A stretch of 64,000 nucleotides of DNA from Candidatus Omnitrophota bacterium (lineage in GTDB: Bacteria > Omnitrophota > Gorgyraeia > Gygaellales > Profunditerraquicolaceae), in NCBI GenBank assembly GCA_028712255.1, contig JAQTQJ010000003.1, positions 7,173-71,172 on the forward strand, read 5' to 3'. This document shows positions 4,904-21,419 of the stretch, piece by piece. The translations under genes and the position numbers were made by a program. The stretch's first letter is position 1; each line of letters begins with the position of its first letter. The notes under the pieces were generated by a model that saw only the letters and a program-made list of their open reading frames with translations, ran no database searches and was not told the origin of the DNA.

Positions 4904-5298
4904 TTCTGCACCAGCAAATGCCAGATGCCCTCGTCATGGTCTAAAATATCCGCAACTATCCAGCTGATAACCGCGCCTCCGATTGTTTCAGCAAATGAAA
5001 CAATATCTCCGCCTTTATTTATTGAGGTAACACCCGCTGCTGCATCATTGGCAATAAAGATTTCACCCTGATTAAGAAGCACGCGACCGGTATCTTCATA
5101 AGCCGGATCTAAGCGTTTGCGGATTATGACCGCTTTAATTATTTTCGGCACTCCAGCCTTAGGCGTATATGTCAAATCTTCCGCAAATGCAGCTCCGTCA
5201 AGAAAAACCTTTATTACATCCTGCGTAACTTGCGATTTAAAAGTCATGACCTGTCCTTTCAAAGAAAGCCGGGGGAGATTTGATTCCCCCCGGCTCAC
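4900..5298 (-). CDS. Head-tail adaptor (lambda FII-like position)
   Basis: 132-aa ORF directly downstream of the major capsid gene. Confidence 0.3.
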   Translation of the reverse strand: MSRGESNLPRLSLKGQVMTFKSQVTQDVIKVFLDGAAFAEDLTYTPKAGVPKIIKAVIIRKRLDPAYEDTGRVLLNQGEIFIANDAAAGVTSINKGGDIVSFAETIGGAVISWIVADILDHDEGIWHLLVQK

Positions 5299-5303
5299 CT
5301 TAT

Positions 5304-6263
5304 TTAGGCGTCGACTTTCATCAGATGCGCAAAATACGGGTCAATGATCAGCTCATCGACATGCTGGCGCACGCGAAAGATATCGCTTCTGGCTGCGTCA
5401 TCCCGGTACTGTTCGACCGTTGCATTATCCGGGCTGTCTGCACTCCACAAGAAGGTCCTGCCTACGCTTGGCACAGAAAGCCTCTCTGAAGCGTCGATTA
5501 CCGCAACCAGCGCGTAGTCATCGCTCCAGATATCCGCTGAAACAAAGGCCTTGCCTTCTTTTGCGGAATTGTAAATTCCTTTGCCGACAATGATCCTCTG
5601 AATACCCAGGATATCTGCCAGGGCATTTAAGATCTCCGCTTCCGTCAGGCGCGCCACGTACTTGATGGCATCCTTTATGCCGGTATTTACAAGCAGCCGA
5701 TCAATGTTGGCCTTGCTTATAACCAAGACGTTTGGCTCTAAGCCGCTGTTCTGGCGCACCTTCTCCCGGGCCGCTCTTACCTGCGCTACGGCATCTGTAG
5801 CCACGTTATCCCAGGGGTTAGCGGAATTATCCGTATACAGAGGGGCGCCCGTAAAGGTAGTGGCGTTAAAAACTACCGCAGCAATCCGCCTTTCCTGCGC
5901 CTGCAGGACCCTGCGGGTTACGATCTGCACTGTGGTAAGCTCTGCGTCAAAATCGGTAGCATACAGGGCTCGCTCTCCGTCATCCAGAGGGCCTTCTAAG
6001 CCAAACTCCTCGCAGTTATACTGCCTGTCCTTGGCTGAAAAACCGTCACGGTTGTAATTGCCTCTTGGCGCGCGCTTGGTGTCAGCCTCTCTAGTGATGC
6101 TCTCCCGGGTGATTGCCGGGAATATGCTTGCTTTTTTCTTGGTAGAGAATATCGGCAAAACCTGAGTCCCGATAAACTCATTCTGCTGCTGGATAAACTC
6201 CAAAGCAGCCTCTCCTAATTCCATCCTTGGCACTGCTCTTGTTCCCTGATAATCAACTCCCAT
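5304..6263 (-). CDS. Major capsid protein
   Basis: 319 aa, placed after the decoration and protease/scaffold genes. The sequence has the overall look of phage major capsid proteins. Confidence 0.55.
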   Translation of the reverse strand: MGVDYQGTRAVPRMELGEAALEFIQQQNEFIGTQVLPIFSTKKKASIFPAITRESITREADTKRAPRGNYNRDGFSAKDRQYNCEEFGLEGPLDDGERALYATDFDAELTTVQIVTRRVLQAQERRIAAVVFNATTFTGAPLYTDNSANPWDNVATDAVAQVRAAREKVRQNSGLEPNVLVISKANIDRLLVNTGIKDAIKYVARLTEAEILNALADILGIQRIIVGKGIYNSAKEGKAFVSADIWSDDYALVAVIDASERLSVPSVGRTFLWSADSPDNATVEQYRDDAARSDIFRVRQHVDELIIDPYFAHLMKVDA

Positions 6264-6286
6264 CTGAATCCTCCTGTTCTGTTTAA

Positions 6287-6640
6287 TTACGCTAACAACC
6301 CTTCTACGATTTCTCCGTCTGAGCCTGTGGCTTCAAGGACCACGCCTTGAATCGATCCGCTTACTGTAGCGCTTACCTTGCCGTCAGCTGCGCCGTAGAA
6401 GCTCCCGCCTACAGCTATTGCTCCGGCTGCGACGACCTTAAAGGTCCTGCCGGTTGACTTTAGATCAACTGAGACCATCTCTCCGGACACTGCCTTGGCG
6501 CTGGTTATGCCGATAAATGCCTCGCCTGCGTCCGCATACTCAACCTGGGTTCCGCTTCCTGCGGATAACTTTACCCTGCGGTAAGCCTCTAAATCCTCTC
6601 CTGCCGTAAAAGCCTTTGAACCGATATTAAACTGTGACAT
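6287..6640 (-). CDS. Head decoration protein (DUF2190 / lambda D-like)
   Basis: Gly/Ala/Val-rich 117-aa beta protein starting MSQFNIGSKAFTAGED. Start at 6640 is preceded by GAAGGAGG. The ORF-track start at 6712 is probably an artefactual extension. Confidence 0.5.
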   Translation of the reverse strand: MSQFNIGSKAFTAGEDLEAYRRVKLSAGSGTQVEYADAGEAFIGITSAKAVSGEMVSVDLKSTGRTFKVVAAGAIAVGGSFYGAADGKVSATVSGSIQGVVLEATGSDGEIVEGLLA

Positions 6641-6660
6641 TTTACTTTCCTCCTTCGTTA

Positions 6661-7677
6661 TTAAGGTTTTCTTTTTTCTGCCGTAGCCCTTAATGCTTCG
6701 GTCATGCTGCAATTATGCTCATCCTTGTAGGCCCTGGCGAGCTCCAAGTGAGTTTTCTGTTTCTTAGGCGGATTTTTATCTGCGTCAGGCCCAAGATTTG
6801 AAGGCGCGTTCTTTTCGAGTTCTGCAAGCCTCTTGTCTTTGAATTTTCCCAGCGCAGCCTCCACGCTGTCGCCTTTTTCTATTGCCTCCTGGGCAAGATC
6901 TCCCATACCCTCAAATCCCTTAGCCTCTTTTAAAACAGCAAGAATCCTCTCGCGCTCCTTTTGGCTGCCTGTTTCCCTGCCTTCTTTCAAAAGGACTTCG
7001 GTTAAATCCGACCTCTCGGTCTTTAACATCTCCAATGTTAAAGTTGATAGTTCCATATTCTCCACCTCCTCATTTTTGTTTTTGATTATCTCGATATCTA
7101 AATCTATATTTTCGCCCTTATCCTTAAGGGCGGTAGCTGAGGTATGCTCATCCGCTCCCAAAGCGCAGAAAGAGACCTCCCTTAAAACAGACTTCCTGAA
7201 TATCGTCCCGGGGCCTTTAAGCTTCTGGCCGTTGACCTCGGCTGTCTCGCCTTCCTTGACCCTCTCAATTGCCAGAGGCGGGATGTAAATAGAAGCCTGC
7301 CAGGGGAAGCCTTCATCGGCAAGCTCTAAGGCCTCTCTGCCGTCCTCGGTCTTTTCCGAGAAAATCCCATCGGCAATAATGCCTCTTTTCTCATCTATGT
7401 GAACGCCTTCGGTCCAGCCGACAATGCGGTTAGAATTATGCTCCCGCAGCGCAGGCTTTTTCTCACGGCCTATAGAGACTCCGGACAAATCTATGGCCAA
7501 ATTTCCCCAGAGCCAGTGGTTAAGCATTACCTTCCCGCTGTGCGCAACCATGCTGAATTTCCGCTTGCTTGTTTTTTCGCCTTCTTTTAAGGCGAGAATT
7601 GCAACAGGCTCATCTGCTTCCCTGAACCTCAAGGCTGCTTTCGGTATGTTTTCGGTTTTGGAATATGGCATATTCAT
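6661..7677 (-). CDS. Prohead protease fused to a charged coiled-coil scaffold-like C-terminus (lambda C/Nu3-like)
   Basis: N-terminal half looks protease-like. The C-terminal ~120 aa are Lys/Glu-rich and predicted coiled coil. It lies between the portal side and the decoration gene. Confidence 0.45.
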   Translation of the reverse strand: MNMPYSKTENIPKAALRFREADEPVAILALKEGEKTSKRKFSMVAHSGKVMLNHWLWGNLAIDLSGVSIGREKKPALREHNSNRIVGWTEGVHIDEKRGIIADGIFSEKTEDGREALELADEGFPWQASIYIPPLAIERVKEGETAEVNGQKLKGPGTIFRKSVLREVSFCALGADEHTSATALKDKGENIDLDIEIIKNKNEEVENMELSTLTLEMLKTERSDLTEVLLKEGRETGSQKERERILAVLKEAKGFEGMGDLAQEAIEKGDSVEAALGKFKDKRLAELEKNAPSNLGPDADKNPPKKQKTHLELARAYKDEHNCSMTEALRATAEKRKP

Positions 7678-7687
7678 CCCCCTTTTT

Positions 7688-8038
7688 TTAATCGACTAAT
7701 TTCCCCTCGACGTGTCCTTTGTCGATAAGGAATTTTGCTATGATTTCCGCTACATCGTCAGCCAATGACTTCGCTGTAGTCTTGATATTCCTCATCTCGT
7801 CATACTCCCTACCTTCGATTCTGAACTCTTCGCCGGGCCAGTTGGGAATCTCGATATAGATCCCGCCCTGCTTAAAACACTTGGCTGTATAAACGACGAA
7901 ATACCCGGGCTTATCGCGATATTGGCCAGACCGATAGATTTCCTCTTCGTATTTGCATATCCGCAAATGCGTGGCCTGGTCTTGCCTGTAAATACCAGAC
8001 GGTAAACTTTCGGGGTTTTTAAGCTGTATTACTTTCAT
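7688..8038 (-). CDS. Hypothetical protein (part of the insert between the portal and protease genes)
   Basis: 116-aa ORF, tightly packed with neighbouring genes. Confidence 0.3.
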   Translation of the reverse strand: MKVIQLKNPESLPSGIYRQDQATHLRICKYEEEIYRSGQYRDKPGYFVVYTAKCFKQGGIYIEIPNWPGEEFRIEGREYDEMRNIKTTAKSLADDVAEIIAKFLIDKGHVEGKLVD

Positions 8039-9234
8039 ATCATCGATAAATAAATATCTTTTGTGTGCCTTGCGATTTCCTTCCAGGAATATCGCTTAGC
8101 TGTTTCTTTTGCCTGCCGTAACTTTTCTGGAACGGCTTTATGATTTCTGATAGCCTTAATCAAGCTCTCTGCGGTGGGCTCAATCAAGATCGCATTATCG
8201 TCATTACAAAATTCTTTCAAGCCTCCGGTGTTGCTTACTATCAAGGACGCTCCCAGGCCCATCCATTCCAGGGCGGTGATTCCAAACGGCTCGTGTAGAG
8301 AGGGCATAATCGCGATATCCGCAATCTTCATCAATTTCCACTTCTCCTCTTGAGGGCAAAAGTTAAGCCATTCGAAATTCGCGTATCGCTCCTTCATCTT
8401 CTTGATTTCATGGGTAAGCGGGTTGCATGGCTCCAATGTCGGCGAAAGGGCAGAGATCAAAACGAAATGATGGTCTTGTATTTGCCTGATCGCCTCCAGA
8501 ATCTGCCAGACCCCTTTGGTCGGGACCATGCGGCCCACGAATACCACCAGGGGCTTGTCGTATTTCCTTTTGAGTTCTTCGTCGTATTTAATGCCCTGCA
8601 AAAATTCGTAATCCACTCCGTTAGGCACCACTTCTATTTTTTCCTCCAGCCAGTACTCCTCCTGCATCGCCCGCTTGTAATACTCGGATACCGTCAACAG
8701 CTTATTGCACGAATACAAGGCCGAGCCCTCCTGCTGGATGTCATAAAGATAAAAGGGATCTTCGGGAATCCGCTCGTGGGATAAGAATAAATTAAGGTGA
8801 CAGGACAAAAGGACAGGGCATTTATACAAGGCCTTCAAATGCCTGACCACGCCCCAGAGGTTGGTATCGTGCAGATGGATCAGATCAAATCTCTCCCGGC
8901 CAAGAAAGGCGAGCGCGTTCTCGAGAAAAATATCATCCGTAATAATCTTCTGCAGAAACCCGACCCTGGTCAAAAGCTGGTTGGTGTTATAAACCTCTAA
9001 TAACCGGTAATGATTCGGCTCGTGTTTCCAATCCTCGGGCTGGACGCGCTTTTTCTTGTTTCCCATCAAATAAAGTCCGCCCTCCTGGGTGTAATAATCA
9101 GCGCAAATGAGCGTCAATTCTATGTCTTCGAATTTCCTGAGCCCATCGCATAAATAGCGGGTATGCACGCCCAGGCCACCGTTGCTATCGAACGGACTGC
9201 CATTGATAAACATGAGGATTTTATTTGTAGACAT
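8035..9234 (-). CDS. Glycosyltransferase, family GT4 (GT-B fold)
   Basis: 399 aa. The C-terminal half carries GT4 hallmarks: VVFVGRMVPTKGV...EPFGITALEWMGLGASLIVSNTGGLKEF. Confidence 0.7.
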   Translation of the reverse strand: MSTNKILMFINGSPFDSNGGLGVHTRYLCDGLRKFEDIELTLICADYYTQEGGLYLMGNKKKRVQPEDWKHEPNHYRLLEVYNTNQLLTRVGFLQKIITDDIFLENALAFLGRERFDLIHLHDTNLWGVVRHLKALYKCPVLLSCHLNLFLSHERIPEDPFYLYDIQQEGSALYSCNKLLTVSEYYKRAMQEEYWLEEKIEVVPNGVDYEFLQGIKYDEELKRKYDKPLVVFVGRMVPTKGVWQILEAIRQIQDHHFVLISALSPTLEPCNPLTHEIKKMKERYANFEWLNFCPQEEKWKLMKIADIAIMPSLHEPFGITALEWMGLGASLIVSNTGGLKEFCNDDNAILIEPTAESLIKAIRNHKAVPEKLRQAKETAKRYSWKEIARHTKDIYLSMI

Positions 9235-9718
9235 GATAATTGCCTTTTATGGTTACGCTTGCGTCCTGCGTGGCATGGGAGTTCTGAAGGACCAGTTCGA
9301 TCGTATTGCCTACAATCTGAACGCTCTTTATCCTGACCAATTGCCAGCCCGTATTGTTATAAAAGTTCCCTGAAAGAAAACCGTCATCCTCGTAAGCGTA
9401 CCCTTTCACCCACCAGTCGTAAAAAACGCAAAGGCTAATCATATTCGTGCTCATACCTGCGCTTTGGGCTTTGGCATTGTTTATGTCGGTGGTGAACATG
9501 ATGTAAGAATGCGCCCTGCGCCAGGATGAAACCGCTGCCTGCGGGACGTATAAAAGCAAATGCCCCATCTTGTAGTCCGCGCGACCCAGGGGAATAACAA
9601 GCGTGTAAGTCGTGCCTGCCGGAATAGCCTGGTTCGTGCAACCGAAACTCCCTTCTTCCCGGCCGCCTTTTTCGACCACGTCCAGCTTGCCTGTGATGGG
9701 ATTAAATTTCATCGACAT
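9221..9718 (-). CDS. Hypothetical beta-rich protein (insert)
   Basis: 165-aa ORF overlapping the GT start. Confidence 0.3.
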   Translation of the reverse strand: MSMKFNPITGKLDVVEKGGREEGSFGCTNQAIPAGTTYTLVIPLGRADYKMGHLLLYVPQAAVSSWRRAHSYIMFTTDINNAKAQSAGMSTNMISLCVFYDWWVKGYAYEDDGFLSGNFYNNTGWQLVRIKSVQIVGNTIELVLQNSHATQDASVTIKGNYHVYK

Positions 9719-9719
9719 A

Positions 9720-10553
9720 TTAGTTCCTGGTTATGGTGGCGATCTCGTTTCCCGGATTATAAGCTAAAGTCAAGACCGCAACCGCGGTGCCTGAAACGCC
9801 GCCCTTTTTGTATGTCACGGTTTCGATTTCTCCCTGGCCATTTCCGGAAGATACATAAGTCAAGGCGATATAATCGAAAGCCGGGATTTCAAAGCCGATT
9901 AATTTCCTAAGTTCCGCTAAAATCGCGCCGTCGCTTCCGCCTCCGACGTAGACATTACCGGCCCGATAAAATTTCTCGCCGTCTTCAGTCACCAGCCTGA
10001 CGGGTATTGCCTCTTTGGGCTTTGTGTTCTTGACAAAACTATTGAAGATAATCGCCTTGAGCTGTTTCCAGAACTCCTCGCTCGAATCTTTGAAAAAATT
10101 AAATAACTTTCCGAAATCGAACTCTTTATACCAAACAGGTCTTTTAATGCTTACCTCATCAGGAAATTCTTTAGGTTTTATTTCCTTTAAGTTGGATACC
10201 CTTATCTCTTTCGGGTGCTCGCTTCTTAAATCCTGCGCGTTGGATATCTTGACCTCTCTCACGGCGTCAGGAAAGTTACTGACGAACACCCTGAATTCTT
10301 TGCCAAGCGTTTCCTGATATTTATCCAGGGCTTGTATGAGCTCGCGGACTTCATTCCTGATATCCTCAAACGTCTGGGAATCCTTGCCGTCCTTTATCAG
10401 CACATAGACCTTAGCGATGATATCAACGATGTCCTTCTGCCGGTCTAAAGACTTAAGCAGAAAGATATTTCTCTCCAAGTTGTCGTCCTCGGTTTGGGTG
10501 CCTAATAGCCGGCTGATTTTGTTTCGTTCTAAAAGGACGGCTTTCTTATCCAT
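9720..10553 (-). CDS. Hypothetical protein (insert)
   Basis: 277-aa ORF between the portal and the 165-aa ORF. Confidence 0.3.
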   Translation of the reverse strand: MDKKAVLLERNKISRLLGTQTEDDNLERNIFLLKSLDRQKDIVDIIAKVYVLIKDGKDSQTFEDIRNEVRELIQALDKYQETLGKEFRVFVSNFPDAVREVKISNAQDLRSEHPKEIRVSNLKEIKPKEFPDEVSIKRPVWYKEFDFGKLFNFFKDSSEEFWKQLKAIIFNSFVKNTKPKEAIPVRLVTEDGEKFYRAGNVYVGGGSDGAILAELRKLIGFEIPAFDYIALTYVSSGNGQGEIETVTYKKGGVSGTAVAVLTLAYNPGNEIATITRN

Positions 10554-12291
10554 TAGCTAAAACCTCCGAAAGCTTATTTTTTATTCCGCAGAGCTCTTCT
10601 TTTAAGGCGCTGTTATCGTTCCCTATCTTCGCAAGCTCGCTGCTTAAGTTCTCATTTCTCTTTGTAACTTCTCCGGCGTCTTCTAGAATCTGACGAATCT
10701 CTTCTTCTTGCTGTGCTTCCTCTGTTCCCCCGTCTTTAGGAATTTTTGAGTCAGCGGTTGTCTCCGGAAGGCCGAGCTCTTTTCTTTTCTGCTCTTCTCT
10801 TGCCCTCTGCTCCAAAATCTCCTCCCAGTCTTTGCCCTGCCCAGCTGCTTCATCTGCTAAGCTTGAGATATTTCCCGTAATAGCCTCCCTGGATGCCTTT
10901 ACTTCTTTAAGCGGATCCACCCAGGACCAGCCGGGAGCAATCCATCTTGCCCTCAGCCATGCAGATCTTGGCCTGCCTTTTTCGTAAAACTCAGCGGCCT
11001 CCAGCTCGCCCTTTAAGTACGCCTCTTCCAAAAGCATCTCCCAGACCGGCTGGCAGAGCTTTTGGGAGAGCCATTCCTGCCTAACCTTAAAATATCTCCT
11101 GGCTTCTAAGAGAGCTGCCCTTGCGCTTGAGTAATTGGTCTTAGAGAAATCTTTTGCCACCAGCTCATACGGAAGGCCAAGGGCTGCGGATATGGCTTTT
11201 AAGATTCTGTCTACGAACGGTTCAAACGTCGCGCTCGGCCTCTGGGGATTAAATGAGGTGATAGTCTCCCCAGGCATAAGATGCTTAATCATCCCGGGCT
11301 CTAAGGATTCCAGCATCTGACCGGAAGGATTTCGCTCGTAGGCGGAATTGACTGCCACATCCATCGAGGCCTCGGAAGTTATAAAAAGTGAGAAGCATGC
11401 TGCAATACGGCTGGCAACCAGCTCTGCCTCGGTATACTCGGCTAAATCTTTAAAATAGGTCAATACCGGAGCAAAAAAGGGAACGCCTCTGGTCTGGCCT
11501 GAACGCAAAACATAATACAAATGAAAAATATTTCTTCTGCCCATTACGCCCTTGGACTGGATTTCTATATACTGCTTTGCTTCTTCCGCAGACCGGTGAT
11601 AGATATCTCCGGGGTGCGTCTTTTGAATAAAGTAGGAAACCGGCTCGCCGTTTTCTCCGATCTTGACGCCAGACCTGACTGCCTTGTCGCTTTTTTTATC
11701 AGCCGGGGTGTTGAGCCTGTCTGACTCAATCACTTGCAGGGCCAACGGGTACGGCCTGCCGTTAGTTTCCAATCTCAACGGGACGATTATTGCCTCGCCG
11801 TTTTCTAAGATCTGCCTGTCTACTAACTGCTGGATCTCATAGAAGTCCATGCGCTCTCCGGCATCAGCATAAGGAGTCCAGCGCCTCCATACCTTTTCGG
11901 CTTTTCTTTGGAATTCGTCTGCCAGCCCCTCGTCTATGCCAAGTTCTTCCTTATCCACCCTGCTCTGAGGCCTGATGCCGGTGCCGATGACATTTACAGT
12001 CATCGTTGAGGTAATCCCTGCGGCGTGCGCGTCATTTCTGTTTAAATCGCGACTGCGCTCCCGGATATCGGATAATTCAGGCAGCAAGTCCTGGTCTGCC
12101 GAGCCTCCTCCGGGAATCCATGACGACCTTAGGCGGTCCCTGCTTGCGCCTTTATACGCGCCGAACTTCTGAGAAATATTTATTGCCTCGCGGTACATCC
12201 TGCGCTTAAACCCGGCCTTGGGGGAAAAGAAAGAAACGATATTGTCTATTGCGCCCGCGATTCTTTCTGAAAGTTTATTTTTAATTTTCAT
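10546..12291 (-). CDS. Portal protein (lambda B family)
   Basis: 581 aa. The N-terminal region KAGFKRRMYREAINISQKFGAYKGASRDRLRSSWIPGGGSADQDLL is characteristic of lambda-type portals. It follows W and the large terminase. Confidence 0.7.
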   Translation of the reverse strand: MKIKNKLSERIAGAIDNIVSFFSPKAGFKRRMYREAINISQKFGAYKGASRDRLRSSWIPGGGSADQDLLPELSDIRERSRDLNRNDAHAAGITSTMTVNVIGTGIRPQSRVDKEELGIDEGLADEFQRKAEKVWRRWTPYADAGERMDFYEIQQLVDRQILENGEAIIVPLRLETNGRPYPLALQVIESDRLNTPADKKSDKAVRSGVKIGENGEPVSYFIQKTHPGDIYHRSAEEAKQYIEIQSKGVMGRRNIFHLYYVLRSGQTRGVPFFAPVLTYFKDLAEYTEAELVASRIAACFSLFITSEASMDVAVNSAYERNPSGQMLESLEPGMIKHLMPGETITSFNPQRPSATFEPFVDRILKAISAALGLPYELVAKDFSKTNYSSARAALLEARRYFKVRQEWLSQKLCQPVWEMLLEEAYLKGELEAAEFYEKGRPRSAWLRARWIAPGWSWVDPLKEVKASREAITGNISSLADEAAGQGKDWEEILEQRAREEQKRKELGLPETTADSKIPKDGGTEEAQQEEEIRQILEDAGEVTKRNENLSSELAKIGNDNSALKEELCGIKNKLSEVLANG

Positions 12292-12524
12292 GACGGCTTA
12301 TCAAATTTTGCGTATGTGGTAGTGTCGTTTGAGCCTGCGATTTCTCTGCGCAATTGGTCGCGCAGCTTTATTAGTTCAGTAAGGGGAATATATTGAAGAT
12401 TCCTTCCGCCGATAGAATAAGATTGCACAGCGCCGCCAGTCGTCCTGGCGTTAATGGCATTCTCGACGTTATCAAGCATCTCCTGCTTCGTGGGCACGCT
12501 CACAAAAAACTCCTTTTGCCTCAT
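12288..12524 (-). CDS. Head-tail joining protein W-like
   Basis: Small ORF just before the portal, with similarity to gpW in the GGAVQSYSIGGRNLQYIPLTELIKL region. The true start is more likely the GTG at ~12503, preceded by AAGGAG. Confidence 0.4.
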   Translation of the reverse strand: MRQKEFFVSVPTKQEMLDNVENAINARTTGGAVQSYSIGGRNLQYIPLTELIKLRDQLRREIAGSNDTTTYAKFDKPS

Positions 12525-12530
12525 CCCAAT

Positions 12531-12571
12531 AAAAAACCCGACTCCAACCGATGCATCGGAATCGGGTTTTT
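12531..12571. terminator. Bidirectional intrinsic-terminator-like hairpin (A6, stem-loop, T5) between the terminase side and W
   Basis: aaaaaa-cccgactccaaccgatgcatcggaatcggg-ttttt. A second hairpin gcggcag...ctgccgc plus TTTTT lies at 12585-12616. Confidence 0.45.
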
Positions 12572-12694
12572 GCTGCTATTGGGCGCGGCAGCAGTGATCA
12601 GCTACTGCCGCTTTTTAAGTTTCCTAATTCAATATTACCCAAATACAGTTTTTTGGCAATAGGGTCGTTATGCTGTTATAGTAATAATTCAAAT

Positions 12695-12979
12695 TTAGCC
12701 CTCTTGCTCTATAGACTTAAAATTATAGCCGCATTCTTTGCAGCGGTGATACCTGACCGGCGGATGACTCGCATACCAGCGGATCTTCTTTGATCCGCAT
12801 CTTGGACACCTAAGTGGAATAAACCTGACAGCATAATCATCGCCTGTATTCCCGGGGCGACCGGCGCTTCTTTTTCTAACATCAACATTTCCTGAATGAT
12901 TTTCATTTTTTAACCAATTCTCTTTTCTCTCAAGCCATCGCCCCATCAAAGCCAAGAGCCCTCTCTTTTGCGGATCCAA
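12695..12979 (-). CDS. Small zinc-ribbon protein
   Basis: CPRCGSKK...CKECG. Its start overlaps the 3' end of the large terminase gene. Confidence 0.3.
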   Translation of the reverse strand: MDPQKRGLLALMGRWLERKENWLKNENHSGNVDVRKRSAGRPGNTGDDYAVRFIPLRCPRCGSKKIRWYASHPPVRYHRCKECGYNFKSIEQEG

Positions 12980-14796
12980 GCCTCTCTTGAATGGCCTTGG
13001 ACTTCAGTTTTCGGCTGATAAACTCTTGTCGAATCATCTTTGCGGATATTTAATGCCCGGATAATGTCTGCGGCAGCCAAGGCATAAACCTCTGCATCGA
13101 GAAAGTGATTTGCTGCCGCCTCTTTCTTTTTCTGCCACACTTCCTTTGCCCGGCCAGTCGTGCGGTTACGTATTAATATTTTGTGTTCGGAAGTAAACTG
13201 AGTTAAATACTCCTCGTTCGAATTTTTAAAGATGTGCCATTTAACCGGATCCCGAGAAGTGACGAGCCGATTGATTTTGTCTTTATACTGCGTTACGTTC
13301 AAATGCCATAAAACAAGGCCTCCTGGAATAACTGCCCCGGTCCGCGAATTGATATCTATTTTGTTTGCACGATAGAAACGACCTCCGCTAATTTCTTCAA
13401 CTCCCTTGATCGCTTTAGTCTTATCGGCCCAGTGACGGCAAAACCGGTATACCTCATCGGTTTTAAATCCCGAATCGATACATGACATATAGACAGTGAG
13501 AGTTTCCGCTGAACTTAATCTTTTATATTCCGTTTTGAACAATTCCTCTACTAGGTCATCCCAATACTCAACTCGTCCTGCGCGGATGAGCCATGATTCT
13601 TCATAATATCCCCAGCCTCGTATGACGAAATAAAAATGATCCTTCTGCACGTCAACGCCTGCAGTCAAAACCAAAACATCATCCGGAACAATTCCCTCGT
13701 CATAATCCCGGGCGAGATTGCGCACCTTATCTACCGTTGTCTCTTCAATCTTTTCTTCCCAAACCTCCGCAAGCCACGAATTGACGAAATTCATCAACAG
13801 CTCAATGTAGTCCTTAGACTTTAAGAACTCTGCTGCGATATCGCTCCATGTAAGCCAAGGAGAATAAAGAGAGCTGATCCAGAAACCGCGGTTTCTGTTT
13901 TTCTCTTTCTTCTCCGGAATCCACTCTCCGCTTAACATTATCTTTTGCTTCTGCGCGTCTTCTATCTTTCTGCCGCAATAGAAACATTCATACCAGGCAA
14001 GCCGCTCGTTTTTAATTCTCTCCGGCGATGATTCCTCTCTCGGCCATTTGATTTGACCAAATACCAAAACTTGCAATTTCCCGCAATGAGGGCAGGGAAC
14101 GTAAAATCTCCTTTGATCTGACTTCTCATATTCCCGGAAGATATAACCTTCGCGTGTAGTAGGCGTTGAAACCTTAATTGTCTTTTTATTCCAAAAAGTC
14201 TTCTGCCTCTCTGAAGCAAGTTTTATCGGATCTGCCTCGCGGCCCGAAAACTTCGGATATTTATCAACCTCATCCAGAAATAGATACCGGATAGGCCTTG
14301 ACGCAAGATCAGCCGGGCTGTTTGATCCTGCGAAATACAGGATCATGCGGTCAAAATGATATTCGAGTTTCGTGATATCATCGAGATTCTCGGGGAGATA
14401 TTTATTTAATACCGGCGATGCTTCAATCATCGGGCGGACTCTATTATACGAAACGCTCTTTGCATCATCGGCCCGCGGCGAGACCATAAGCGTCGGACCC
14501 GGGTCCTGGTCGATTACATAACCCAGCATATTATACATTGCCTCAGTCTTACCAACTTGAGATGCAGCCATAACTGTTATCTCATCAACAAACGGATCCG
14601 TGAAAGCATCCATGATCCCTTTTAAATAGGGTGTCCTTGTTGTCGACCACTGCCCGGGCTCTGCGGAAGTCTTAACATCAAGGCGTCTGAACGTATCCGC
14701 CCACTCGCTCACCGTCATCTTATTCGGCAAAACCCACTCTTCTGCCGCATAAGGCAATACGGTGCTAACTATCGCTTTTGCTATTTTTATCCCCAT
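12946..14796 (-). CDS. Terminase large subunit (lambda GpA family)
   Basis: 616 aa. N-terminal ATPase region with a Walker-like motif (VGKTE) and a C-terminal nuclease region. Gene order TerS-TerL-W-portal. Confidence 0.8.
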   Translation of the reverse strand: MGIKIAKAIVSTVLPYAAEEWVLPNKMTVSEWADTFRRLDVKTSAEPGQWSTTRTPYLKGIMDAFTDPFVDEITVMAASQVGKTEAMYNMLGYVIDQDPGPTLMVSPRADDAKSVSYNRVRPMIEASPVLNKYLPENLDDITKLEYHFDRMILYFAGSNSPADLASRPIRYLFLDEVDKYPKFSGREADPIKLASERQKTFWNKKTIKVSTPTTREGYIFREYEKSDQRRFYVPCPHCGKLQVLVFGQIKWPREESSPERIKNERLAWYECFYCGRKIEDAQKQKIMLSGEWIPEKKEKNRNRGFWISSLYSPWLTWSDIAAEFLKSKDYIELLMNFVNSWLAEVWEEKIEETTVDKVRNLARDYDEGIVPDDVLVLTAGVDVQKDHFYFVIRGWGYYEESWLIRAGRVEYWDDLVEELFKTEYKRLSSAETLTVYMSCIDSGFKTDEVYRFCRHWADKTKAIKGVEEISGGRFYRANKIDINSRTGAVIPGGLVLWHLNVTQYKDKINRLVTSRDPVKWHIFKNSNEEYLTQFTSEHKILIRNRTTGRAKEVWQKKKEAAANHFLDAEVYALAAADIIRALNIRKDDSTRVYQPKTEVQGHSREAWIRKREGSWL

Positions 14797-15391
14797 TTTT
14801 CACACCCGCGAATTGATTGATGATATAACGCAACTCCGCGTCTAACATTTCGCACATAACCTTCGGATCCTGTTGATACAATTTTGGCGCGATGTATTTC
14901 GGAAGCCGCAAAAAACCGGCCTTAATCCCTCTTATTTGATTCTTAACAATTGAAGCGTGATCCGCAAAAGGAATAAGTTCTCCTTCTTTCTGCTTCAGTT
15001 CAAGTTCGCTTAATTTAGCGCGGTTCTTGCGGTATTCGTTTTCCCAATAATCTTTGCTGCCGTCTTCGGGATTCTGCGAGGCATAGAACCATTTAAAAAC
15101 ATCGCTGACCTTAAAGCGTGAAATCTCGCCTGAAGCGTCCCGGATAACCGGCATTCCCTGTTTGATGTAACGCCGGACCATGCGGGGTGATTTTTCTAAG
15201 AATACTGAAATTGTTCCGAGGTCGACCGTCCCGTCAAATACATCGGTTTCTTTCTTCTGCTCGGATTTTTCAAACTCCTCGAGCTCCTTAAGCTCTTTGG
15301 CAGATAGTGTCCCCCGCTGGAGTTTCTCAACAAGAGAAATGTAGCGTTTCTTGCGGGCAATCTCTATTAGATTCTGACTTTTTTCATCCAT
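14765..15391 (-). CDS. Putative terminase small subunit / DNA-binding protein
   Basis: Immediately upstream of the large terminase. Contains an HTH-like segment (MVRRYIKQGMPV). The start is probably the internal MDEKSQ at 15391, giving an 8-bp overlap with the upstream gene. Confidence 0.35.
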   Translation of the reverse strand: MDEKSQNLIEIARKKRYISLVEKLQRGTLSAKELKELEEFEKSEQKKETDVFDGTVDLGTISVFLEKSPRMVRRYIKQGMPVIRDASGEISRFKVSDVFKWFYASQNPEDGSKDYWENEYRKNRAKLSELELKQKEGELIPFADHASIVKNQIRGIKAGFLRLPKYIAPKLYQQDPKVMCEMLDAELRYIINQFAGVKNGDKNSKSDS

Positions 15392-16691
15392 TACTATTTT
15401 CTCTATGCGCCTTTCTCCCCGAAAATTCTTCCCATCTTTTGACGGCCACGTCGCAAAAGATAGGCTCGATCTCCATTGCATAACAGCGCCTAGTTAACCG
15501 TTCTGCTGCAATGATCTGCGAACCGGAACCGCTGAACGGCTCGTAGCAGATATCTCCGGGTGACGTATGCACGCGCATAGGAATAGCAAATACCTCGGTA
15601 GGCTTAACCGTTGGATGATGCAGTCCGGGATTACGTTTCTTACCTTCCCAGTCCAGCTCCCAAACATCAGTATGATATTCAGGCTTCGTAGGATCGCCGG
15701 ACCGAAAGAAATTGACCATCCACACACTGCCGATAGATTTGTCCTTTGGCTTATAAAGCGGCTTTTTTCCTTTAACCCACATAAGAAGACAAGGCTCATG
15801 CCTCCACGAATAAAACGAATACGTTAATACTGCGCAAGGCTTCACCCAAATAATCTGCTGATGGACGAGAACTCCGAGATCATCGCAGATTTCATCAATC
15901 ATGCCTCTTCGTTTTGAGGCATGCCAAAGATAGAGCGCTGTGTTTTCTTTGATATGTTTAAGCCCCACCTCATAAAACTTTTTTATGAATTCCTTGGCAT
16001 CCGGAATGTCGACCTCATGATAAACACCGGACCAATCGTGACCGCCGGTAGGCCTATCAGCTCCGGTGTAGTCGACACAGTAAGGCGGATCAGTAGCAAA
16101 CAAACTTGCTTTCTCTCCAGCCATAAGCCTTGCAACATCTTCGTCGCTTGTAGAATCCCCGCAGAGAAGCCGATGATCACCTAATATCCAAAGGTCGCCT
16201 TTTTTAGTAATCGTCTCCTTGGGCGGTTCAGGAATATCATCCGGAAGCGTTTTGCCGTCGCCAATATTCTCAACACCCATGTCGCCAACGCTATCCCGTA
16301 AATTTTTGAGCCGAAGCGCAAGATAATCATCAGCCGCCTCTTTGCGCAGCCTCTCTAAAAGCGGAATAAGAGCCTGTGTCCACTGTCCGGCAATCTCCTG
16401 GTTATTAAGCGTGACATTCATTGCCTGCTCTTGAATTTCGTCAACGTCAACTATGATAGCCGGTGCGGTCTCAACGCCCTCCGCCTGCAAAATCTTATAC
16501 CGCTGATGCCCTGAAATGATATGCATATTGCGCTTATTTACCACCAATAGGTCCACATAGCCAAACTTCTCCAGGCTATGCCGCAGGCCCGCCAAGGCCT
16601 CGTTCGATATTTCCCTCGGATTATAAGGCGCCGGTTTAATTTCCGATATCTTTATGTCACTAATCGCAGGCTTAATATTGATTTTTGCCAC
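15384..16691 (-). CDS. ParB-like nuclease domain fused to a DNA methyltransferase (N6-adenine or N4-cytosine, DPPY motif)
   Basis: N-terminal ParB/Srx fold (ISEIKPAPYNPREIS...GHQRYKIL), a DPPY catalytic motif and a C-terminal FSGSGS SAM-binding motif. Confidence 0.75.
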   Translation of the reverse strand: MAKINIKPAISDIKISEIKPAPYNPREISNEALAGLRHSLEKFGYVDLLVVNKRNMHIISGHQRYKILQAEGVETAPAIIVDVDEIQEQAMNVTLNNQEIAGQWTQALIPLLERLRKEAADDYLALRLKNLRDSVGDMGVENIGDGKTLPDDIPEPPKETITKKGDLWILGDHRLLCGDSTSDEDVARLMAGEKASLFATDPPYCVDYTGADRPTGGHDWSGVYHEVDIPDAKEFIKKFYEVGLKHIKENTALYLWHASKRRGMIDEICDDLGVLVHQQIIWVKPCAVLTYSFYSWRHEPCLLMWVKGKKPLYKPKDKSIGSVWMVNFFRSGDPTKPEYHTDVWELDWEGKKRNPGLHHPTVKPTEVFAIPMRVHTSPGDICYEPFSGSGSQIIAAERLTRRCYAMEIEPIFCDVAVKRWEEFSGRKAHRENSNG

Positions 16692-16936: not shown

Positions 16937-17380
16937 TTATCTCTTGTTATATATCTCTTGTTCGGGTGACACACCGGTCACTACCTCTGGTGACACCTGT
17001 GTCACTACTCCAGTGACAGCCCTGTCACTGGTGACATCAATGTCACTACTTGGTTGTGGATAACTTTTCACTCCTGAAATATTAAGCAGCTTATAAATAT
17101 TCGGCTTACCCTTCTTCCTCTCAATCGCAACAGCCTTCAACCGCTCCAGCTGCTTTACTGCCCGCATGATCGTGCGCCGGGATACTCCGCAGTGATATGC
17201 CAATGTGGTAACAGACGGAAAACAGTCCTGCGCCTTAAAATTAGCGTAATAACAAAGCCATGAATAAACAGCAACGCCCATTGTCCCGGCATTCTCGCTA
17301 ATGAGTCTTAATGCTGCCTTATCTATCCAAAGGAATTTGCCGTCGCGCAAATCCCTGATATCTATCTTTTCGTTTCCCAT
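16937..17380 (-). CDS. HTH DNA-binding protein, candidate replication initiator (lambda O-like / replisome organiser N-terminus)
   Basis: N-terminal winged-helix/HTH (LAYHCGVSRRTIMRAVKQLERLKAV). The iteron array lies within its own coding sequence. Confidence 0.4.
   Translation of the reverse strand: MGNEKIDIRDLRDGKFLWIDKAALRLISENAGTMGVAVYSWLCYYANFKAQDCFPSVTTLAYHCGVSRRTIMRAVKQLERLKAVAIERKKGKPNIYKLLNISGVKSYPQPSSDIDVTSDRAVTGVVTQVSPEVVTGVSPEQEIYNKR
16966..17046. repeat. Four tandem dyad iterons GTGACA-N5-GTCAC (~20-bp period) inside the 3' end of the HTH gene, followed by an AT-rich region
   Basis: GTGACAcaccgGTCAC / GTGACAcctgtGTCAC / GTGACAgccctGTCAC / GTGACAtcaatGTCAC. Directly 3' of the array the direct repeat atctcttgtt occurs twice (16939-16962) in an AT-rich stretch. 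Confidence 0.6.
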
Positions 17381-18160: not shown

Positions 18161-18733
18161 TTATTTCAGGTAGTCCCTTAGTCCCTCCTTTTCAAAGAGT
18201 TCTCTTATCCGAGCTATCTCACGATGAATAATCATTCTATGTTTATTAAGCTGCCTAGAGGCCTCGCTGATAGTCAGGCCTTCTTCGCCAAGCAGCTTGC
18301 ATAATTTCTGTTGCTGCGGAGTAAGCTTCTGGTAAACTCTGGAAAGTTCTAACTTGAGTTCAGACTTAATTTGCGGCAGGACATCATCGCTTTCAGCGAG
18401 TTTGTCTTTTAAGGCAGGCTCATCTTCATTGTCATCAAAGGGTTCATCCAGGGATACGCTTTCGTAAAACGCCCTCCTTTTATCAGCATTGGCTTTCTCG
18501 GCAAGATTGATAAGCATATTCCTAACAACCTCAGCCATATATGTCCTTTTTGAAGCGCCACGTTTTGTATCGTAGCGATCGCGGACCTCAAGCCAGTGCA
18601 TAAGACATTCCTGCAATAAATCGTCCAATCCTTCACGCGCCAAATATGTGTGCTCTTTTCTGTAATCATTAATAACTTTCTTGGCAACTGCAATCTCCCA
18701 ACTCTCAAATAAACCTCCGTAATTGAGACTCAT
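18161..18733 (-). CDS. RNA polymerase sigma factor, sigma-70 family (ECF-like, regions 2 and 4)
   Basis: 190 aa. Region 2-like segment (RDRYDTKRGASKRTYMAEVVRNMLIN) and a C-terminal region-4 HTH (LTISEASRQLNKHRMIIHREIARIRE). Confidence 0.6.
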   Translation of the reverse strand: MSLNYGGLFESWEIAVAKKVINDYRKEHTYLAREGLDDLLQECLMHWLEVRDRYDTKRGASKRTYMAEVVRNMLINLAEKANADKRRAFYESVSLDEPFDDNEDEPALKDKLAESDDVLPQIKSELKLELSRVYQKLTPQQQKLCKLLGEEGLTISEASRQLNKHRMIIHREIARIRELFEKEGLRDYLK

Positions 18734-19652: not shown

Positions 19653-21419
19653 ATGATCATAAAACCTAAGACAGATAAAACAACCAACAAAAAACGATAC
19701 GTTATCTATACGCGCTGCTCCACTGACGACCAGGCCCAGGGAGACTTTACCACCTTGGACAGCCAGGCTTATCACTGCAAGAACTTGCTGGACGCCTTTG
19801 GATACGAGCTCGCCAAGATAGGCAACAAAGGCCGAATAGACGATGACGGATACTCCGGCAAGGATCTCAACCGGCCCGGCATCCAGACGATTATCGACCA
19901 TGTGCGTAAAGAAACTGCCCCTTTTGATGGAATAATCTTCTTCCGCCTTGACCGCCTAACCCGGAATACCCGTGACCTCTACTGGCTTATTGATCTATTC
20001 AACTCCAAAGAGATCTCTTTCGTATCCGTACGCGAGAATCTTGACAGCTCAACCGCCATAGGCAGAGTGGTCATTGGTATACTTGGGATCTTGTCAGCCT
20101 TTGAGCGGGAACTCACCGGCGAGCGTGTGAAAGCCTCTTGCATAGCGCGTGTTCGCCAAGGCAAGTGGGTTGGCGGGATGCTGCCTTATGGATATAAGCT
20201 TATACCAGACGGACAACCTCTGCCTAACGGCCGCCAGCCACACAAGATCGTCCTTGATGAGAAGACATCTCTCCATCTTAAAGCTATCTGGGAGATGGCC
20301 GCAGATAATAAATCGCTTACGCAGGTAGGTCTTGAACTACATAGGCGCGGGCTAAAAACTCTAAACGGCAAGGAATGGCGCAGACAGGTTATCTCAAGGA
20401 TCTTAAAGAATCCCTTCTATAAGGGCTACATCCAGTACAGCGGAGAGTATCATAAAGGCACTCATCCTCCAATTGTAGAGGAGTGGCTCTGGGAAAGGGC
20501 TAATAAGATATTGAATGCAAGACTCCCCGGCCACAACTTTGTGCAGAAGGAAAGATTCTACGAATACCTCCTAGCCGGTATCATTAGATGCGGCGATTGC
20601 GGAAGCCATATGGTCTGCAATTTCTCAGGTGGCCGTGGCCGGAGAAAGTTCTTTTATTATGAATGCAGCCGCTCCAAACAGGCCCTGGGATGCAAGGCTG
20701 CGCGCATCTCAGCAACCACCTTTGACAAAGCCATAATCGATTATTTCAGGCGGGCATCCAAGGACAAAAACATTATCATAAAGGCCCTTGGGGACGCAAT
20801 GCTTGAGTCGCAGGCAAAGCTTAAAAAGATAGAAGCGGATCTTAAAGAAAAGGAAGCCAAACTAAATGGCTTCCGGCACCAGGCCAATAAGCTGCTGGAA
20901 TTGGCCATGGGTAACACAGTAACCAAAGGCTCAACCTATAAAGACAAAATGGCCGAATTGGAAACTGAGATCGTAAAGCTGGAAGACGAAATAGACAAGC
21001 TGCAGGCCCAGAAGAGAGTCACCAGCATAAACGCCTCCTCCGGTGAGCTCGTATACCGTACCATGGGCTTTGCCATCCAGCACCTCGAAGATGCCCCTCC
21101 GGAAGCCCAGAAAAGCCTTATTCAGGCCTTGATTAAGGATATCTATGTCTATAGCGACCGGTTGGTAATCAATATGTATATTGATGAGCCGCTGGAAAGC
21201 ATCCTCCCCACCGAAATAGCCTCTACAAACGAAAAGCGCCCTACAGAAGCCTGTAAGGCGCTTGCATCCACTGTATCGCTACCCGGAGTTTCGGATAGTT
21301 GTCAACAATGGCTGCCCCGCTTGGACTCGAACCAAGATAGTCAGATCCAGAATCTGAAGTCCTACCGATTAGACGACAGGGCAAATGTGTTAGAAAGTAT
21401 ATCGTGGATAAAAAGTTAA
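19653..21419 (+). CDS. Large serine recombinase (phage integrase)
   Basis: N-terminal resolvase catalytic domain (YVIYTRCSTDDQ), a recombinase domain, a zinc-ribbon-like Cys cluster (CGDCGSH...C) and a C-terminal coiled coil. 588 aa. Confidence 0.85.
   Translation: MIIKPKTDKTTNKKRYVIYTRCSTDDQAQGDFTTLDSQAYHCKNLLDAFGYELAKIGNKGRIDDDGYSGKDLNRPGIQTIIDHVRKETAPFDGIIFFRLDRLTRNTRDLYWLIDLFNSKEISFVSVRENLDSSTAIGRVVIGILGILSAFERELTGERVKASCIARVRQGKWVGGMLPYGYKLIPDGQPLPNGRQPHKIVLDEKTSLHLKAIWEMAADNKSLTQVGLELHRRGLKTLNGKEWRRQVISRILKNPFYKGYIQYSGEYHKGTHPPIVEEWLWERANKILNARLPGHNFVQKERFYEYLLAGIIRCGDCGSHMVCNFSGGRGRRKFFYYECSRSKQALGCKAARISATTFDKAIIDYFRRASKDKNIIIKALGDAMLESQAKLKKIEADLKEKEAKLNGFRHQANKLLELAMGNTVTKGSTYKDKMAELETEIVKLEDEIDKLQAQKRVTSINASSGELVYRTMGFAIQHLEDAPPEAQKSLIQALIKDIYVYSDRLVINMYIDEPLESILPTEIASTNEKRPTEACKALASTVSLPGVSDSCQQWLPRLDSNQDSQIQNLKSYRLDDRANVLESISWIKS

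Follow-up and report, generated by a model that had tools for sequence, protein, structure and literature searches.

Why does a prophage of an uncultivated bacterium carry a glycosyltransferase (GT) among the genes that build its head? The question is raised by a stretch of 64,000 nucleotides from a Candidatus Omnitrophota bacterium (assembly GCA_028712255.1, contig JAQTQJ010000003.1, positions 7,173 to 71,172 of the forward strand; hereafter the window), in which four co-oriented open reading frames (ORFs) of 277, 165, 399 and 116 amino acids (aa) lie at 7688-10553, between the portal and protease genes of a lambda-ordered head module. An earlier note on this DNA had described the four genes, with coordinates and sizes that proved exact, as a possible single, late-expressed cassette, and had proposed virion proteins, the host surface or DNA as targets of its GT4-family enzyme. 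The results presented here divide the insert differently. The four genes are not one unit, being made up of a lineage-specific gene, ORF277, and a portable ORF165-GT4-ORF116 module, and the region that they occupy within the head-morphogenesis operon of this lambda-like Omnitrophota prophage is a hypervariable site for accessory genes. We tentatively read the module as a portable cassette through which the virion acquires a glycosylated domain on its surface, ORF165 being the acceptor. The insert and its two boundary genes are:

10546-12291, minus strand: lambda-family portal, 581 aa, upstream boundary of the insert (PF05136, 7.7e-107; phrog_21)
9720-10553, minus strand: ORF277, 277 aa
9221-9718, minus strand: ORF165, 165 aa
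8035-9234, minus strand: GT4 glycosyltransferase, 399 aa (PF00534, 2e-24; PF13439, 3e-19)
7688-8038, minus strand: ORF116, 116 aa
6661-7677, minus strand: head maturation protease, 338 aa, downstream boundary of the insert (phrog_3244, 6.2e-28)

When IMG/VR was scanned with the portal, 80 relatives came up, and the neighbouring proteins were mapped onto them. In ~56 of these loci (portal identity 66-76%) the portal gene is directly followed by the protease gene, an adjacency confirmed at ORF level in L118 and L169, and the four genes are therefore a true insertion in the window prophage, in agreement with the earlier note, which had placed them where lambda has none. The same relatives, which lack all four genes, speak against the possibility, also raised in that note, that homologous phages carry them as conserved structural components. 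ORF277 follows the portal in every locus with 81-91% portal identity. After ORF277 come ORF165, the GT and ORF116 in, for example, L005, L016, L023, L025, L108, L111 and L116, and elsewhere unrelated genes replace these three. Three other ORFs (196, 362 and 210 aa) occupy the site in L109, L113, L114 and L115, the 196-aa protein of this group having only its first ~15 residues (MSMKFNPTTAKLDIV) in common with ORF165, and the ORF277 homologue of L105 is 72% identical over residues 1-210 and unrelated after a Gly-rich linker. The combination of a constant N-terminus with an exchangeable distal domain is typical of modular virion appendages, as known from tail-fibre modularity. A comparison with related prophages, suggested in the earlier note as a way to learn whether the insert varies, thus gave a clear answer in the other genes found in L105, L109, L113, L114 and L115. 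The idea of a single four-gene cassette did not survive it: ORF277 stands apart, and the three-gene module moves between unrelated phages.

The alternative cassette of L109 spans 8577-10822 of that locus, and the N-terminus of its 196-aa protein reads MSMKFNP.T.KLD. In L105 (7739-10236) the swapped C-terminal domain of ORF277 is followed by ORFs of 75, 117 and 290 aa. Neither alternative cassette had a usable Pfam or PHROG match.

The conserved unit, ORF165 followed by the GT4 gene and ORF116, moves among unrelated phages, and homologous modules lie within structural operons in all contexts examined. Examples are:

L001, GT 53% identity: 165-aa ORF, GT; end of the structural block, before RusA
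L021, GT 48% identity: PF04860/Mu-F portal, 114-aa ORF, ORF165 homologue, FkbM-type methyltransferase, GT, ORF116 homologue, scaffold-like gene, SU10-type major head protein (MCP)
L019, GT 41% identity: after tape-measure and Laminin_G tail-fibre genes, 175-aa ORF, GT, ORF116 homologue, SAM methyltransferase
L004 and L018, GT 38% identity: capsid, GT, GT, 159-aa ORF, GT, 51-aa ORF, ORF116 homologue
L020, GT 32% identity: 174-aa ORF, GT, 124-aa ORF; upstream of a tail-tube gene

The linkage between the two main partners is strict. In a hidden Markov model scan of 104 loci, every viral GT4 scoring at least 185 bits against the clade profile had an ORF165-domain ORF upstream, and a clade GT follows the ORF165 domain wherever the contig continues, fused genes included. 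The GT also follows the domain where it forms the C-terminus of 256-, 269- and 574-aa proteins; the fused genes are followed in L180 by a GT whose N-terminus is 42% identical to that of the window GT, in L181 by a GT and an ORF116 homologue, and in L182 by a GT. A wider group in IMG/VR (L032-L046, L051, L056-L063, L070-L073, L080, L082 and L092) has two to three tandem ~165-aa ORF165 paralogues and then a GT of 23-29% identity; in L033 (5473-8218) the paralogues and the GT are flanked on one side by a third type of portal (phrog_145) and on the other by the scaffold and MCP genes. The capsid and portal types found alongside the GT-ORF165 pair comprise the lambda type, an SU10-type capsid with a PF04860 portal, Phage_capsid_4, and a phrog_145 portal with a phrog_1328 capsid. 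Genes that could elaborate a glycan accompany the pair elsewhere, with three GTs in L004 and methyltransferases in L019 and L021, and the genes upstream of ORF165 in other phages had no usable Pfam or PHROG match. The two partners have also diverged together: Mantel correlation of the ORF165 and GT distance matrices gave r = 0.985 for the 16 core pairs, 0.854 when a single representative stood for the window clade, and 0.913 across all 34 pairs, and in each set 0 of 2000 permutations reached the observed value. As a separate observation, the 870-aa post-portal gene of L181 (495-3107) carries a LAGLIDADG intein (PF14528; weak Intein_splicing match).

On solid sequence grounds, the 399-aa protein is an intact GT4 enzyme of GT-B fold and retaining type with a complete set of catalytic motifs, as the earlier note had assigned it. 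PF00534 matches residues 218-381 with 86.5 bits (cutoff 26.4), and PF13439 (70.1 against 28.5 bits) and PF13579 (48.4 against 29.7 bits) likewise score far above their thresholds. An alignment of 26 clade members and two archaeal outgroups has G19, G20, D123, R235 and K240 (GR..KG), E315 and E323 invariant, and H120 and H122 nearly so. The two glutamates of the EX7E motif (E315-PFGITAL-E323) are thus retained throughout, contrary to the degraded pseudogene that the earlier note had considered as a way in which its reading might fail. The clade to which the enzyme belongs (P0001-P0044, 32-89% identity) is almost entirely metagenomic, and beyond it identity falls abruptly to 28% or less, among generic archaeal GT4 proteins; the clade is phage-specific. 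Searched against PDB sequences, its profile matched best 6tvp (GlgM, 3.7e-39) and 2bis (archaeal GlgA, 1.2e-33), then MshA, BshA and PimA. No NCBIfam model reached its cutoff, TIGR02149 (glgA_Coryne) scoring 99.9 against 302.4 bits and TIGR02095 57.8 against 328, and the enzyme does not classify as a glycogen synthase. It shares with GlgM and GlgA (GT4/GT5; 6tvp, 2bis, 3fro) the GT-B fold, an N-terminal GGLG-type motif and EX7E, but differs from them in belonging to a phage-specific clade and in a genomic context that is not glycogen metabolism. PF20706, a GT4 family of conflict systems, matched residues 224-366 only, with 35.7 bits against a cutoff of 26 and beneath stronger generic GT1/GT4 matches. 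Membership in a defence system was considered and, as PADLOC gave no match for any of the four proteins, judged unlikely; the context is a phage head operon.

The earlier note had found no features to assign in the three proteins that flank the GT, a description that no longer fits: ORF165 belongs to a rare domain family with fusions, ORF116 is a conserved third partner, and ORF277 has conserved and swappable parts. ORF165 consists of a 15-residue N-terminal motif (MSMKFNPITGKLDVV) and a ~145-residue domain that is predicted to form a new beta-sandwich (AlphaFold2 model from alignment A3; the model from close homologues only was poor, with a predicted local distance difference test score, pLDDT, of 65). 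It had no family in Pfam, PHROG or NCBIfam. An exhaustive profile search of 1.84 billion cluster representatives yielded a family of 92 members, most of them stand-alone proteins of 150-175 aa and several of them fusions with the domain at the C-terminus. The N-terminal part of P0192 is a Phage_cement_2 decoration domain (24.6 bits, the cutoff being 24), that of P0115 matches a tail-fibre PHROG (1.5e-5), and P0134 begins with the same FNPFTGKLD motif. The N-termini of P0108, P0118, P0120 and P0144 carry motifs that, by eye, resemble those of tail fibres (LDADTVDGYH; repeated NADWNAxTGDAxILNKP). Conserved polar residues of the domain lie at strand ends and in loops (D48, R67/R68, T76/T77, Y107/Y109, D112, S116 and N146), and S116, in a nearly invariant D-x-x-L-S loop, may be regarded as an acceptor candidate only.

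ORF116 had no family match in any library scanned (Pfam, PHROG, PADLOC and NCBIfam). In most contexts of the core clade the GT is followed by an ORF116 homologue, immediately so in L004, L019, L020, L021, L031, L096 and L181. R36, G45, E63, L104 and G108 are invariant among the homologues, and as the small soluble third member of the module it might, at a guess, have an accessory or chaperone role. ORF277 is built from a conserved N-terminal part of ~210 residues, the Gly-rich linker GNVYVGGGSDG and a swappable C-terminal domain of ~65 residues that is restricted to the close clade. Residues 217-269 match phrog_26903, a family of unassigned function, and no match was found in Pfam, NCBIfam, PADLOC or PDB sequences. 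The protein is probably an adaptor or anchor. One could speculate that its C-terminal domain docks the FNP-motif N-terminus of the next protein, an idea that fits only the two-state pattern of L105 and L109; no homologue of the domain was found in L001 or L019, both of which carry the FNP motif.

What the module does can be pictured as follows. The three genes would be expressed late along with the head proteins, and the GT4 enzyme would move a sugar from a nucleotide-sugar to the folded beta-sandwich of ORF165 in the cytoplasm, the donor sugar possibly being glucose and the linkage alpha, as judged only from the nearest relatives of the enzyme. ORF116 would assist, perhaps as adaptor or chaperone. 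The glycosylated ORF165 would then join the virion by way of its short N-terminal motif, as a decoration where it is a stand-alone protein or as the tip of a longer fibre, and the extra GTs and methyltransferases of some phages would extend the glycan. Relatives that have the GT and relatives that lack it do not differ in the C-terminus of the MCP, which has no extension, and this, together with the position of the GT-domain pair beside unrelated capsid types, makes it more likely that the acceptor lies inside the module. A virion protein is still the best reading among the targets proposed in the earlier note, the evidence given below disfavouring DNA and the host surface. A more specific and rather doubtful version of the proposal is that the ORF165 domain and the GT form a self-contained, horizontally portable 'glyco-tag', in which a glycogen-synthase-like GT4 builds an alpha-glucan or other glycan on the domain as its dedicated acceptor, perhaps via Ser116. 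If true, lambda-like, Mu-F/SU10-like and other phages could gain a glycan-tipped head or tail appendage in one recombination step, and the pair, as a protein-specific glycosylation system for phage appendages, would have no precedent and would take virion glycosylation well outside the actinobacteriophages.

Several points weigh against ORF165 as a glycosylated virion domain. Linkage and co-divergence would equally fit an ORF165 that binds the product of the GT or is a subunit of the enzyme. The suggested virion location of ORF165 is drawn from context, a few fusions and weak fold similarity, and only two fusion partners, those of P0192 and P0115, carry a tool-based virion label, both with modest scores. 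Glycosylation of ORF165 is proposed from sequence comparison, S116 is only a candidate for the acceptor residue, and late expression is read from the arrangement of the genes. ORF116 is missing in L001 and L182, and is therefore dispensable; it is also missing in the group with several ORF165 paralogues. Finally, the window portal has a C-terminus of ~50 extra residues (10546-10700) that is charged and coiled-coil-like by eye; the portals of insert-free relatives are 525-529 aa long (L118, 6004-7593; L169, 572-2149), and matches of the window portal to them end at residues 508-548. In all loci seen, this tail and ORF277 occur together, and the tail is found only in that clade. In known portals the C-terminal tail faces the capsid interior, and ORF277 could accordingly be an internal head protein.

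Two alternatives have to be weighed most carefully. In the first, ORF165 would be a glycan-binding receptor-recognition domain and the GT would modify the matching host surface glycan, acting at the cytoplasmic face on a lipid-linked precursor, with the effect that superinfection is blocked or progeny are kept off debris; the two genes would be inherited jointly since their specificities must match. We consider such receptor masking unlikely. The genes lie within a late structural operon, with overlapping junctions and promoter-like sites that do not exceed background, and ORF277, ORF165, the GT and ORF116 have no hydrophobic or membrane segment (maximum KD19 at most 1.23), nor is a flippase or Gtr-type partner present. 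The best solved relatives of the GT are soluble enzymes of the glycogen-synthase type, and modules with additional GTs or methyltransferases suit the building of a glycan on a defined acceptor. Seroconverting Gtr systems (GtrA, the GT2 enzyme GtrB, and GtrC) are morons expressed in the lysogen, whereas the enzyme here is a GT4, not a GT2, and is positioned in the late operon.

In the second alternative, the GT would decorate the major capsid or tail-tube protein, and ORF165 would either be a decoration protein with no tie to the GT or act as a subunit for specificity or targeting. There is precedent for phage GTs that act on capsid and tail tube, as described in PMC12619734 and PMC11600133, the GT of the window sits among head genes, and ORF165 could serve as an adaptor. 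The same GT-ORF165 pair is found with unrelated capsids and portals, however, and an enzyme specific for one capsid would need to adapt anew in each case. In GT-less relatives the C-terminus of the MCP is identical, and it is unextended. No actinobacteriophage match came from tblastn against 50,697 phage records, among which the deposited actinobacteriophage genomes should be present. Generic decoration of the virion is in our judgement also improbable.

Less credible is a metabolic or enzyme complex, in which the GT would be a glycogen-synthase-like alpha-glucan enzyme acting on a cytoplasmic glucan or small molecule, with ORF165 and ORF116 as non-virion subunits, for example a carbohydrate-binding module. 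The scores are far under the family cutoffs (99.9 against 302.4 bits), the module lies within structural operons in every context, and fusions join the domain to a decoration domain and to larger proteins of virion type, one of them with a tail-fibre PHROG match. Sister prophages moreover swap the module for appendage-like genes while the N-terminal anchor motif is kept. Least of all do we expect the GT to add sugars to hydroxymethylated bases of the phage DNA and so evade restriction: phage GTs are classically DNA-modifying, according to PMC12619734, and a ParB-DNA methyltransferase gene lies nearby (15384-16691), but there is no Pfam match to the T4-type DNA glucosyltransferases (T4 alpha/beta-GT), neither the part of the prophage within the window nor the flanks of homologous modules showed a hydroxymethylase, and the GT has as its constant partner no gene of nucleotide metabolism but a predicted beta-sandwich domain, which in some cases is fused to virion proteins.

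How new such a system would be can be judged from what is known of phage and bacterial glycosylation. In actinobacteriophages, phage GTs glycosylate the C-termini of major capsid and tail-tube subunits, according to PMC12619734, PMC10877033 and PMC11600133, and in cluster O mycobacteriophages, as stated in PMC11600133, three tandem GT genes lie downstream of an O-methyltransferase gene and both capsid and tail tube are modified. The module resembles the actinobacteriophage system in that phage-encoded GTs occur with virion structural genes and would presumably result in a glycan-coated virion, and the cluster O arrangement of a methyltransferase and three GTs recalls the tandem GTs of L004 and the methyltransferases of L019 and L021. 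It differs in that no GT-specific tail is present on the MCP, the GT being tied instead to a co-diverging, predicted beta-sandwich domain, and in that the hosts are uncultivated Omnitrophota and not Actinobacteria, the module being known here from sequence alone. Virion glycosylation in actinobacteriophages was reportedly described by Freeman et al. (2023) in Cell Host Microbe, and it alters antibody recognition. To our knowledge, glycosylation of virion proteins by phage-encoded enzymes has so far been shown essentially only for these phages.

Among bacteria, enzymes that glycosylate one specific protein include GtfA/GtfB with serine-rich adhesins, EarP with EF-P, HMW1C with HMW1 and TibC with TibA; GtfA is also a GT4, and such enzyme-substrate pairs sometimes have a small accessory or chaperone partner. 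As in the module, enzyme and specific protein are tightly linked and co-inherited in these pairs. Unlike them, the module lies in a phage structural operon and has a new domain as its candidate acceptor, and no homology to their substrates or accessories was found. ORF277 and ORF165 are in turn similar to modular tail fibres, tailspikes and head fibres in having a constant N-terminal anchor and an exchangeable distal domain, but the site in the window is between the portal and protease genes and not in a tail-fibre region. We know of no gene for a modular phage appendage that is paired with a glycosyltransferase, and full-text literature searches gave no description of a pairing between a phage GT and a fibre or decoration domain.

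Among the cultured phages in INPHARED, none has ORF165 or a close GT. Searches of its 50,697 phage records with ORF165, the GT and their L033 counterparts gave nothing or only matches of 24% identity; for the GT, tblastn returned only two such matches, both to uncultured 'Bacteriophage sp.' records, and a nucleotide search of the same records with the 10-kb head region gave no match. Phage virion glycosylation as such is known; what is new is a distinctive portable architecture with a new domain family. If the proposed role of the module is correct, virion glycosylation is more widespread than now recognized and includes phages of groundwater candidate phyla, protein-specific glycosylation becomes testable in E. 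coli with a defined system of two or three genes, and the module offers a portable tag for glyco-engineering of phage particles. Whatever its function, ORF165 adds a new domain family with a predicted beta-sandwich fold, and the portal/protease site is a hypervariable locus in a lambda-like lineage.

The neighbouring genes on either side in the window are:

15384-16691, minus strand: ParB-DNA methyltransferase fusion
14765-15481, minus strand: TerS
12946-14796, minus strand: gpA-type TerL (PF05876 and PF20454)
12288-12524, minus strand: W-like head-tail joining protein
6287-6712, minus strand: 141-aa protein in the gpD position (phrog_673, head scaffolding protein)
5304-6263, minus strand: major head protein, MCP (phrog_1005)

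Gene order is lambda-like, with gpA-type TerL, W-like protein, portal, protease, gpD-position protein and MCP in succession and tail genes downstream of the MCP gene, and a homologue of the 141-aa protein in a relative has a weak Phage_cement_2 match. The embedding of the insert in the late operon, claimed in the earlier note, agrees with its junctions, all of which are overlaps or gaps of 1-10 nucleotides (nt), with Shine-Dalgarno-like sequences: an 8-nt overlap of portal and ORF277 with GGAGG upstream, a 1-nt gap between ORF277 and ORF165, a 14-nt overlap of ORF165 and the GT, an ATGA overlap of the GT and ORF116, and a 10-nt gap with GGGGGA between ORF116 and the protease gene. Promoter-like sites are at background (15 against 13.3 +/- 4.1 in shuffled sequences), the coding strand of the insert has a single terminator-like match, a weak 5-bp stem inside ORF277 (9775-9788), and the G+C content of the insert (0.43-0.52) does not differ from that of the flanks. 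This arrangement suggests that the insert genes are expressed late. Terminator-like hairpins at 5000-16000 number 21 against 11.8 +/- 3.8 in shuffled sequences, about twofold, and most of them are on the non-coding strand or intragenic. Upstream of the packaging genes lie an ECF-like sigma factor (Sigma70_r2, Sigma70_ECF; 18161-18733) and an HTH_36 protein (16937-17380), which may drive late transcription; if so, scans for the sigma-70 consensus are uninformative here.

The element is a prophage, whose right end is marked by a large serine recombinase (19653-21419, plus strand) and a tRNA-Gln. The 3' end of the recombinase ORF overlaps the tRNA-Gln(CTG) gene on the opposite strand (21309-21383, minus strand), and the overlap is likely the attachment site. 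From ~21.9 kb onwards the genes are those of the host, with a Glu/Gln-tRNA synthetase-like gene and DXP synthase among them, and at the other end the prophage extends past the left end of the window. Near-identical prophages are present in three Omnitrophota metagenome-assembled genomes (MAGs) and in one labelled Margulisiibacteriota (L026, JBAZKW010000014.1), a copy that may reflect either a binning error or a wider host range. The TerS ORF as listed shares ~98 nt with the ParB-methyltransferase ORF, and its real start probably lies further downstream because the PHROG match begins at residue 93.

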